Below are positions 11,210-13,905 of a stretch of 64,000 nucleotides of DNA, in pieces. A program made the translations under genes and the position numbers. The notes beneath the pieces are model-generated. The model was not told the origin of the DNA. It saw only the letters and a list, made by a program, of their open reading frames with translations, and searched no databases. Origin of the DNA: an uncultured SAR86 cluster bacterium (GTDB lineage: Bacteria > Pseudomonadota > Gammaproteobacteria > Magnimaribacterales > D2472); the NCBI GenBank assembly GCA_902599315.1, contig CACKEY010000002.1, positions 151,647 through 215,646 on the forward strand, read 5' to 3'. Positions within the stretch are counted from its first letter, which is position 1. The number at the start of each line of letters is the position of its first letter.

Positions 11210-12016
11210 TTAGTCTAATCTTTCTTTGATTCTTGCAGATCTACCTGATCTTTCACGTAAATAATAGAGTTTTGCCTGCCGCACATCACCCTTTCTTTTA
11301 ACCTTAATAGAATCAATCATTGGGCTATGAAGCTGGAAAGTCCTTTCAACTCCAATACCACTAGATATTTTTCTTACAATAAATGCAGAGTTTAATCCCC
11401 TACTTTTAATGTTCATTACCACCCCTTCAAATGCTTGAAGTCTAGTTCTTTCACCTTCTTTGACTTTAACAGAGACAACAACAGTGTCTCCAGGTCTAAA
11501 TGATGGTACGTCATCTCTTAATTGATTAGATTCAAAAGCTTTGATAATTTCAGCAGGAGATTTTTCATCCACTGAAATAGGAGCAGCTTCTAACTCAGGC
11601 ACTTCATCAGATGTATCTTTGGAATCTGATAAAGATTCTGCCACAGGCTCTTCGACGGGCTCTTCAGCTGCGGGCTCTTCTGTCACTTCCTCTGCCACAG
11701 GCTCTTCGACGGGCTCTTCTGTCACTTCCTCTGCCACAGGCTCTTCTAATATTGCGTCTTGATTAAAATTAGCGTCCCAAGCCTCTAGTAATTCAGCTTT
11801 AGTTAACTTTATATCTAAATCAACACCTAATTGAGCTGCTTCAGCAACAATATCTGCTTTTTTCATTTTGGAAATCACAGATTTGGACAATTTAGTTGTT
11901 TTGGTTAAACCTAATTCGGCTGATGAACTTTCAGAATCATTATCTGATGAATCAGCTGATCTGCCCAGTAGTCTAGAAAAAAAGCCTTTTTTCTTTGTAT
12001 CTTTTGTATCGCTCAT
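11210..12016 (-). CDS. rplS: 50S ribosomal protein L19 with a ~153-aa N-terminal extension
   Basis: C-terminal ~115 aa is L19 ([37 protein letters not shown]); follows trmD. Confidence 0.95.
11638..11746. repeat. Coding tandem repeats (EEPVAEEVT / EEPVE) in the L19 linker
   Basis: Recurring ctgccacaggctcttc and gggctcttctgtcacttcct blocks. Confidence 0.85.
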
Positions 12017-12036
12017 AAGTTAATGCCTGAAATGTG

Positions 12037-12768
12037 CTACAGGATAGCCTTAGATGACAATTCTTCCAAGAGTTTTTTTTGTTTTTTTGTTAATTTTATA
12101 TTCCTTAAAAGTTCGGGTCTTCTCTCAAAAGTTCTAATTAGTGATTGATTATCTCTCCATTCTTTTATTCTATTGTGATCACCAGACATTAGAACTTCTG
12201 GAACATCATAGGAATTAAAAGTTTCGGGCCTTGTAAATACTGGTCCTTTTAAAAGTCCTTGGCTAAATGAATCTTGTTCTACTGATTTTTTATTCCCTAT
12301 GACTCCTGGAATAAATCTAGAAAGAGTATCTACAAGCGTTAACGCAGCAAATTCTCCGCCGCTTAAAATATAATCTCCTACAGAAATCTCTTCATCTACG
12401 TATTGAGAAATTAATCTTTCGTCAATGCCCTCATATCTTCCACACAAAATTGTTATGTTTTTAAGTATTGATAGTTCTTTTGCTTTTTGTTGGCTTAAAA
12501 GAGTCCCTTGAGGAGATAAATTAATTACTTTTCCTAGGTTGTCTTTAGAGATCTTCTTAATGGCATCTTCTAGAGGCTCAGCCATCAAGACCATTCCCTC
12601 TCCTCCTCCATAAGGCTTATCGTCAACCTGACCATGTTTATTTATTTGATGATCTCGCAGATTAAAGATACTAATTTTAATATCTCCCCTATCTAAAGCT
12701 TGACCAAGCAAACCATATTTCAATGAATCAAAAATTTCTGGAAATAATGTAATAATATTTATATTCAT
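12037..12768 (-). CDS. trmD: tRNA (guanine-N1)-methyltransferase
   Basis: VDDKPYGGGEGM, LSPQG, CGRYEGIDER, SVGDYILSGGE. Confidence 0.98.
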   Translation of the reverse strand: MNINIITLFPEIFDSLKYGLLGQALDRGDIKISIFNLRDHQINKHGQVDDKPYGGGEGMVLMAEPLEDAIKKISKDNLGKVINLSPQGTLLSQQKAKELSILKNITILCGRYEGIDERLISQYVDEEISVGDYILSGGEFAALTLVDTLSRFIPGVIGNKKSVEQDSFSQGLLKGPVFTRPETFNSYDVPEVLMSGDHNRIKEWRDNQSLIRTFERRPELLRNIKLTKKQKKLLEELSSKAIL

Positions 12769-12771
12769 AAA

Positions 12772-13302
12772 TTAATAATCTTCTTGCCAGTCTACAAGAA
12801 TCGAATTTTCTTTTTTATTAATTGAAATAATGACTCTATTTTTAATAAATGGAATTAAAAGAGTTTTATTTTTTTTCTGAACCTTAAGAACATCGTTTGC
12901 CCCAAAATTGTCTACTCTATCAACATTTCCAAGATGTTGACCCTCAAGATTAAGAACCTGCATTTTTTCTAACTCAAACCAATATGCTTCATTTTTTTCC
13001 AATTCTGGAAGCTCGGATTTAAGAACATATATATCTTTTTGCCCAAATGATTTAATACCCTCAATGTCATCAATAGATTTCAATTTAGCAATAATATTGT
13101 TATTGCTTTTTTTAATGTACTCAAAAAATATTTCTTCCATTGTGCATGGTTGAAGTGAGAAGAATTTTTTAAATGATGTGAGGGTTTCTAATTTTTCAGC
13201 AAATGATCTTAGGAAGAATTCTCCTTTTAAACCTCTGGTCTTGCCTATCTTTGCGATAAGAACAAATAGTGATTTATCTATCGAACTATTTTTTTTCATC
13301 AT
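12772..13302 (-). CDS. rimM: Ribosome maturation factor RimM
   Basis: [28 protein letters not shown]; synteny. Confidence 0.93.
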
Positions 13303-13804
13303 CTGAAGACTCTTCTTCAGATTCTTCTGTTGGAGCTTCTTCTGCAGGGGCTTCTTCAGCGGCGGCCTCTTCTGCTGGAGCTTCTTCTTCTGCAGGGGCT
13401 TCTTCAGCGGCGGCCTCTTCTGCTGGAGCTTCTTCTACTTTTGCTTCCTCAGCTTCTTTAGCTTGTGCCTCTAGCTCAGCAACTTTTTTTTCCTTAATTA
13501 GATCTTTCTTTTTTTGTCTTCTATCTTTTTTTCTTTTTAACTTTTCATGCAATTCATCTGAGGAGAGTCTTGCATCTTTAGCGAGTTCATTTACCTTGTC
13601 AGAAAGTTGGGCTCCTTGAGCGATCCAGTGATCTAATCGTTCAATATTAAATCTCATCCTTTCTTCAGATCCCTTCGCTGAAGGATTGAAAAAACCTAGA
13701 CGCTCTATAAAGGCTCCATCTCTAGGTTTTCTGGAATCAGCAACCGTTATAAAATAATAAGGGTTTTTTTTGGCTCCACTTTTTGCAAGTCTTACTATTA
13801 CCAT
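13286..13804 (-). CDS. rpsP: 30S ribosomal protein S16 with a basic then acidic C-terminal extension
   Basis: [17 protein letters not shown]...[13 protein letters not shown]...GAQLSDKV. Confidence 0.96.
13331..13436. repeat. ~45-48 bp coding tandem repeat ([10 protein letters not shown]) in the S16 tail
   Basis: tctgcaggggcttcttcagcggcggcctcttctgctggagcttct occurs twice in tandem. Confidence 0.9.
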
Positions 13805-13905
13805 AAAAATTAATTATTGTATCTTTAGAAAAGTTTGTATTTTAGGTTAAGCTTGAAGAATTTGATAGTGTTAATATATAAAGATTACAAAAAAAGAATT
13901 TACTA

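Follow-up and report, generated by a model that had tools for sequence, protein, structure and literature searches.

The A domain of Escherichia coli FtsY begins with a lipid-binding motif of the type K-K-x-G-F-F-S-x-L, which is followed by a long acidic disordered region (PMC3189734, PMC5094494), and it is through this N-terminus that lipid is bound (PMC5094494). The C-terminal sequence of MinD is also terminal, cationic and amphipathic, and a tag made of it tethers FtsZ fusions to membranes on its own (PMC5471200). Whole ribosomes are held at a membrane in mitochondria, which have no signal recognition particle (SRP) and tether their ribosomes through mL45 or Mba1 (PMC8998825). N-terminal extensions of the ribosomal protein bL19 itself are known from organelles, where that of mammalian bL19m forms an inter-subunit bridge with mS27 (PMC8998825) and that of chloroplast bL19c contacts the 4.5S rRNA (PMC5694952). 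Here we describe the gene rplS of an uncultured SAR86 cluster bacterium, found on the minus strand at positions 11210-12016 of a stretch of 64,000 nucleotides (the window; assembly GCA_902599315.1, contig CACKEY010000002.1, positions 151,647 to 215,646). It codes for a bL19 of 268 amino acid residues (aa) plus a stop codon, in which the ribosomal core is preceded by a motif like those of FtsY and MinD, a predicted helix-extended-helix (HeH) domain and an acidic spacer.

With the A domain of FtsY this extension shares the N-terminal motif and the long acidic disordered region and, as far as can be inferred, a role in recruiting part of the translation or targeting machinery to the membrane. It differs in having no NG GTPase (PF00448 is absent from the protein), in being fused to a ribosomal protein, in carrying the HeH domain and in lacking a second anchor at the domain junction. 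The MinD sequence is located at the C-terminus of an ATPase, whereas the L19 motif is N-terminal, present in one copy per 50S subunit and placed on a long leash. With mL45 and Mba1 the likeness is by analogy: in both cases an element borne by or bound to the ribosome would hold it at the membrane without a functioning SRP. The proteins are, however, unrelated, and mL45 and Mba1 are situated at the tunnel exit and bind Oxa1/Oxa1L (PMC8998825), whereas bL19 lies away from the exit and no insertase contact is indicated. The organellar bL19m and bL19c are the same ribosomal protein and are likewise extended at the N-terminus, but these extensions make the contacts given above and, in the parts of the two papers available (PMC8998825, PMC5694952), are described without an anchor-like motif, an HeH domain or an acidic array. 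Full-text searches of open-access papers and bioRxiv found neither a bacterial bL19 nor any other bacterial ribosomal protein described with a membrane-targeting motif.

The extended bL19 gene and its translation

Membership of the product in the bL19 family is clear from a score of 158.8 bits against a curated cut-off of 22. The Pfam model Ribosomal_L19 (PF01245) spans aa 157-266 at positions 2-111 of its 111, with an expectation value (E) of 5.3e-47, and no Pfam model searched against the whole protein rose above noise in aa 1-156. The preliminary description of this DNA, made from the sequence, had recognized an in-frame stretch of about 153 aa in three parts ahead of the core, and this anatomy was recovered: positions 11558-12016 are exactly aa 1-153, and the motifs at aa 8-19 and aa 48-80 and the E/P/A/V-rich linker (aa 85-152) were all found where they had been placed. 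The same source had pointed out that no ATG is found near the core and that the only nearby GTG, at aa 149, is without a Shine-Dalgarno sequence. Both points can be read in the sequence, since there is no ATG from M51 to the core, and the GTG (11570-11572) is preceded by GAAGCTGCTCCTATTTCA, which holds no Shine-Dalgarno match. The start codon of rplS is an ATG located 20 nt past the stop codon of trmD.

The two motifs together, referred to below as the module, were aligned from seven genomes of five genera (alignment A1). The comparison showed two conserved islands, KGFFS(R/K)(L/I)(F/L)xG and MKKADIV..A...G(L/V).LDI..TK..LL..W, with a freely drifting linker between them. At 13 of the 15 residues that are invariant in the seven relatives two or three synonymous codons are used. 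Of the codon pairs that differ, a fraction of 0.34 is amino-acid-changing in the anchor motif and 0.58 in the HeH motif, against 0.90 in the linker that separates them. Synonymous codon turnover combined with conserved motifs indicates selection at the protein level in this frame, and thus that the long form of L19 is made. The L19 extension is therefore genuine, translated and specific to the lineage, with selection at the level of the protein acting on both of its motifs. The junction of extension and core is bridged at 11356-11666 by contigs from seawater RNA libraries (four studies), which signifies presence in RNA libraries only; others bridge the trmD-rplS junction at 11717/11756-12089, without this being proof of transcription, strand or start. 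Three weakly supported joints of such contigs at 11866-12024, whose sides measure no more than 20-24 letters, were left out of account.

On the minus strand rplS is the last gene of an operon in the order rpsP, rimM, trmD, rplS, and it is followed by xerD-, dsbC- and hom-like genes. The features of the locus are collected in Table 1.

Table 1. Features of rplS and its surroundings, in positions of the window.
Feature	Position	Strand	Basis
rplS, extended bL19	11210..12016	-	open reading frame (ORF) call and Pfam
aa 8-19, cationic amphipathic MinD/FtsY-type motif, putative peripheral membrane anchor	11960..11995	-	conservation, physicochemistry, sequence likeness
aa 20-44, S/D/T-rich variable linker	11885..11959	-	poor conservation, variable length, predicted local distance difference test (pLDDT) <50 (AlphaFold)
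aa 45-84, helix-extended-helix (SAP/HeH/Rho_N-like) domain, predicted	11765..11884	-	AlphaFold, profile, Foldseek
aa 85-152, acidic E/P/A/V-rich disordered spacer from tandem repeats	11561..11764	-	composition, repeats, pLDDT <50
aa 153-268, canonical bL19 core	11213..11560	-	PF01245; folded in AlphaFold model, pLDDT about 78-82
trmD	12037..12768	-	
rpsP (bS16, 172 aa)	13286..13804	-	
bS16 C-terminal tail, K/E-rich with acidic EEAPAEE repeats	13286..13558	-	ORF, Pfam, repeats
101-bp spacer that separates rpsP from a divergent membrane-protein gene	13805..13905	.	no ORF within

Absence of SRP components and distribution of the extension

To our knowledge, the SRP is generally treated as universal and near-essential. 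The preliminary description had reported ffh as missing, which holds for the whole genome of the window (G000; 1.44 Mb, 17 contigs, 89.8% complete), and ftsY and 4.5S RNA were likewise not found there. The search of this genome for ffh (TIGR00959) gave nothing, that for SRP54-type GTPases (PF00448) gave only P-loop noise with a best score of 16.2 bits, and that for 4.5S RNA (RF00169) was negative as well, while the positive controls were recovered from 14, 14 and 13 of 14 reference genomes, respectively. The spacer upstream of rpsP (Table 1) is the place in which ffh would be expected by comparison with E. coli, where we assume it to lie upstream of rpsP (a DNA search of E. coli genomes gave no match); it holds no ORF.

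The search for SRP components was extended to 58 genomes that together represent the four families of this marine gammaproteobacterial order with small genomes; 57 have a completeness of 90% or more, and several consist of a single contig. RF00169 was found in none of the 58, and PF00448 gave only four marginal matches, of 22.7-25.8 bits and restricted to profile positions 4-65; in a first sample of the order ffh was above the cut-off in 0 of 41 genomes. Throughout the class ffh is present in 75 of the 81 families sampled, a count that includes genome G206 and a statement that does not depend on it. Four further gammaproteobacterial families, represented by G175, G197, G216 and G222, gave no ffh, PF00448 or RF00169. 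One of these four is a closed genome of 1.8 Mb that is 99% complete. A loss of this kind had been hinted at before, as Dupont et al., in the part of their paper available, list the 'signal recognition protein' and its 'docking protein' as tentatively missing from all four SAR86 genomes (PMC3358033); it is now solid.

IF3 is present in the genome of the window. YidC (G000 C1:176578-178158) ends in a tail of 17 residues past its last domain, which is glycine-rich and non-basic (KKYGASVNGSDGSGGGG). Such a short non-basic tail argues that a ribosome-binding tail in the style of YidC2/Oxa1 is not the answer to the absence of SRP.

The extension was found to be far more restricted than the loss of SRP. 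In the families f2-f4 of the order, L19 was matched in 30 of 31 genomes as uninterrupted frames of 116-138 aa, none of which was matched by aa 1-120 of the L19 of the window, and the f2 sequences that were read begin just ahead of the core. In the family of the window (f1), 26 L19 loci were read, among which 17 are complete ORFs, all of them extended (167-314 aa), seven break off at a contig end within or beside the repeats, two are interrupted or start-less, and none codes for a plain L19. The acidic spacer precedes the core in every readable f1 gene. Complete genes occur in two forms, having either anchor, HeH domain and acidic array or the acidic part only; the latter form was found in G011, which belongs to the same genus as the genome of the window, in all genomes of genus g11 and in most of g15.

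The module was detected in 51 of 139 f1 genomes, always once per genome, and in 11 of the 26 that are at least 90% complete; these counts are lower bounds, since genomes are incomplete and contigs break in repeats. It occurs in seven of ten f1 genera (with/searched: g14 30/41, g10 6/11, g13 1/1, g1 10/31, g18 1/9, g12 1/9, g15 1/25, g11 0/7, g19 0/3, g17 0/1), so that it caps the spacer in roughly a third to a half of f1 species, that of the window included. Among the matches listed in a wider search of genome contigs with the module profile, a single locus was confirmed, at the end of a Flavobacterium metagenome-assembled contig (residues 1-21), and it is uninformative. The L19 N-termini of G175, G197, G216 and G222 are ordinary, G222 having a C-terminal acidic tail instead.

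These data do not support the proposal, made together with the observation on ffh, that the extension is tied to SRP loss as an SRP-independent targeting system, as the f2-f4 families and the four further families are equally SRP-less and have ordinary L19 N-termini. A survey of L19 length against SRP components accordingly gave largely no association between the two, the module being patchy even within f1. The extension is confined to f1 while the whole order is SRP-less, and hence it is not an obligatory substitute for SRP. By parsimony, the loss of SRP dates from the base of the order or earlier and the acidic L19 extension came later, in f1, within which the module has been lost repeatedly or is otherwise patchy. 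The L19 extension is thus an accessory adaptation that arose after SRP loss and not a replacement of SRP.

The conserved motifs and the acidic spacer

In the first motif K10, G11, F12, F13 and S14 are invariant in 19 sequences. The segment aa 8-19, with its FF..L(L/F) face at the very N-terminus of the 268-aa protein, has a mean hydrophobicity of 0.163, a hydrophobic moment of 0.386 and a net charge of +5. The corresponding values of two peptides whose lipid binding was established by experiment are 0.277/0.332/+4 for FtsY(1-18), MAKEKKRGFFSWLGFGQK, and 0.287/0.498/+3 for MinD(251-269) (PMC3189734), so that terminal position, positive charge and a hydrophobic/aromatic face are all found in aa 8-19, with values within the published FtsY(1-18)/MinD(251-269) range. 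The family consensus KGFFSRLFGG and the MinD tag KGFLKRLFGG (PMC5471200) are equal at eight of ten positions, a stretch too short for homology statistics. The likeness of aa 8-19 to the FtsY N-terminus and the MinD tag, to which attention had been drawn before, therefore holds at the level of sequence. When the 10,061 frames of 40 aa or more in the genome were searched with a loose regular expression of the MinD/FtsY type, the L19 ORF alone was matched. Together with the codon comparison and the recurrence of the module, once per genome, in 51 of 139 f1 genomes, this sets the feature apart from chance. Descent from the FtsY A domain was considered and cannot be claimed, as a profile search of PDB reached residues 3-36 of E. 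coli FtsY (2yhs_A) at E 7.4.

The motif is not restricted to L19. The module profile also matches it in a Heimdallarchaeota gelsolin, where it is C-terminal, and in a BamC chain, and the long proteins P0141, P0145 and P0163 contain 5-15 tandem copies resembling KKGFFxRLFGK with acidic spacers between them. By its recurrence in unrelated proteins it behaves as a portable short amphipathic element. P0145 and P0163 are also rich in Sel1-type repeats, and P0141 and P0145 have N-termini resembling signal peptides.

For the second motif AlphaFold predicted helices at aa 45-49, 53-62 and 73-82/84, the latter two joined by an extended segment, with pLDDT 82-93. Its invariant residues are K52, K53, A54, D55, I56, A60, T72 and K73. 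The SAP, HeH and Rho_N models of Pfam gave no direct match to the extension at E up to 1 when the whole protein was searched. The profile of A1, searched against 1.84 billion representative proteins, retrieved 147 at E up to 0.001, which comprise L19 N-termini and proteins labelled by Pfam as SAP, Rho_N or HeH. Pfam SAP overlaps the stretch that the profile matched in P0191 (residues 7-47) and P0230 (residues 237-290); P0178 has Rho_N, SAP and HeH together, away from its best profile-matched stretch. The best Foldseek matches were T4 endonuclease VII (probability 1.00, root-mean-square deviation 1.1 Å, 38 residues), SAP domains and the N-terminus of Rho, with deviations of 1.0-2.0 Å over about 38 residues and, the domain being small, E-values all of 0.27 or worse. 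The nearest named clusters of the Atlas are Rho_N/SAP/HeH, with scores of 0.78-0.80 that serve as a lead only.

The extension thus has in common with SAP, HeH and Rho_N domains a predicted helix-extended-helix of about 40 residues and the Pfam families of its profile matches, and differs from them in the missing direct Pfam match and in the weak Foldseek E-values. On the predicted fold and the links through intermediate sequences, aa 45-84 is accepted as a SAP/HeH-like domain, in agreement with the earlier HeH/Rho_N-like assignment. Three small proteins, P0175 (present on 15 contigs), P0199 and P0230, have a transmembrane helix and a C-terminal HeH motif much like that of L19. To judge from these sequences, an HeH motif joined to a membrane anchor may be an architecture that recurs.

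The spacer contains 31% E and has a net charge of -24. It is built of tandem repeats, one of 27 bp in 4.1 copies (11636-11747) and one of 39 bp in 1.9 copies with 100% identity (11671-11746), and the copy number varies among near-identical L19 proteins, whose length goes from 235 to 345 aa. As a whole the spacer is hypervariable, with 40-200 residues. In L036 (G065) and L035 (G074) the L19 frame is interrupted or start-less within the acidic repeats, by frameshift or assembly error. Long acidic E/A/P tails are carried by three ribosomal proteins of the genome, bL31 (rpmE, at G000 C1 about 99703-100200), bS16 and bL19. The DNA of the bS16 tail contains a 48-bp tandem repeat in 2.1 copies of 100% identity, and the long bS16 tail had matches in each of the order's four families, all SRP-less.

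The protein P0164 (264 aa) consists of an L31 core, an HeH-bearing segment and the L31 acidic tail, the inserted segment (HeH plus flanks) being 75-79% identical to the L19 extension of genus-g1 genomes. It was not used as a sign of movement of the module between ribosomal proteins: it is a singleton on a contig of 1139 bp, no similar L31 was found in the 139 genomes of the family, and it is a rare recombinant or a chimeric assembly.

Possible roles of the extension

It is tempting to propose, with a confidence somewhat short of even, that the L19 extension is an accessory, reversible tether between ribosome and membrane. The likeness of its first motif to known lipid-binding helices suggests that aa 8-19 would fold into an amphipathic helix on anionic lipid and would reversibly keep 50S or 70S particles on the inside of the cytoplasmic membrane. 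With its length of about 68 residues, the acidic spacer could hold the cationic anchor away from the rRNA and give it access to the bilayer from the 50S subunit's bottom side. In cells without SRP such a tether might raise the concentration of ribosomes near SecYEG and YidC, and the HeH domain may add a contact with nucleic acid or protein. As for the site from which the anchor would start, in the chloroplast ribosome bL19 lies beside the 3' tail of the 23S rRNA, with uL3, uL13, bL17 and bL32 (PMC5694952); these neighbours and the bridge made by bL19m imply that the N-terminus leaves the 50S subunit at its bottom, close to the interface and not at the tunnel exit.

Several observations weigh against a membrane tether. 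AlphaFold gave at aa 8-19 only a helix of three residues (12-14) with pLDDT about 53, which is not a confident helix. Amphipathic helices of this type usually fold on lipid only. The hydrophobic moment of the motif is moderate and not the highest in the L19 protein. One anchor per ribosome would be a weak tether; MinD needs dimerisation for stable membrane binding, which provides its avidity. As bL19 lies away from the tunnel exit, a tether on it would not turn the exit to face the translocon. The module is dispensable, to judge from its distribution in f1 and from the acidic-only gene of G011. A back-translated pattern of the motif gave in f2-f4 two matches that look like chance, the reversed control giving four across the 58 genomes. 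The acidic tails of bS16 and bL31, moreover, point to a general trend of the lineage apart from membranes.

That the acidic, RNA-like arm and its module act within the ribosome is rather unlikely. They would then have their place where the subunits meet, in assembly, or in the hibernation or storage of subunits of an oligotroph that grows slowly, and the KKGFF and HeH motifs would contact rRNA, another ribosomal protein or a factor in place of a membrane. The mS27 bridge of mammalian bL19m and the 4.5S rRNA contact of chloroplast bL19c are precedents for such a role, which is consistent with the acidic tails on bL31, bS16 and bL19, that of bS16 being order-wide, and with an acidic part that occurs in every readable f1 gene while the module is optional. 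On the other hand, the first motif comes closest in sequence to helices known to bind lipid, the spacer, hypervariable at 40-200 residues, suits a leash better than a docking element, and the module is missing in many species with a near-identical core.

A more elaborate form of the membrane tether is rather unlikely as a whole: part of an abundant, free-living marine lineage without SRP would have placed a lipid anchor of the MinD/FtsY type on bL19 by means of an acidic leash, membrane proteins would be inserted by proximity rather than by signal recognition, and through the HeH domain the tether would be coupled to mRNA or the nucleoid. The HeH domain might, alternatively, be the working part, binding DNA or mRNA and coupling ribosomes to the nucleoid or to particular transcripts, with the basic N-terminal motif aiding this binding or putting the complex at the membrane in a transertion-like manner. 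Many members of the SAP, HeH and Rho_N families bind nucleic acids, the domain is linked to these families, and the pairing of a transmembrane helix with a C-terminal HeH motif recurs in P0175, P0199 and P0230. The extension has no direct Pfam match, however, HeH/SAP folds also mediate protein-protein contacts, and the domain is absent from most of f1, which makes this explanation improbable.

The strong claim that the extended L19 is a built-in replacement for the SRP pathway is highly improbable. It would fit the missing SRP components, the layout shared with the FtsY A domain and a YidC without a ribosome-binding tail, but the L19 N-termini are ordinary in SRP-less f2-f4 (30 of 31 genomes matched, none extended) and in four other families without SRP, 88 of 139 f1 genomes gave no match to the module, no comparable motif was found elsewhere in f2-f4, and a tether has no means of recognizing signal sequences. 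Finally, a start of translation at the L19 core, with the upstream frame untranslated or an artefact of annotation, would have the GTG codon at aa 149 in its favour and is practically negligible in view of the missing Shine-Dalgarno sequence and ATG, the protein-level selection on aa 8-19 and aa 45-80, a frame that is open and conserved in 51 genomes, and the position of the rplS ATG next to trmD.

A whole order of abundant ocean bacteria is thus without detectable Ffh, FtsY and 4.5S RNA, and the same is true of four other sampled families. Because the lineage can do without the anchor, its principal way of living without SRP must be found elsewhere. If the extension does act as a membrane tether, it would be a bacterial counterpart of the membrane-tethered mitoribosome, with ribosomes pre-concentrated at the membrane, and the ribosome that carries it would be the first one described from bacteria with a lipid anchor of its own, which would offer a simple handle on targeting in SRP-less cells.

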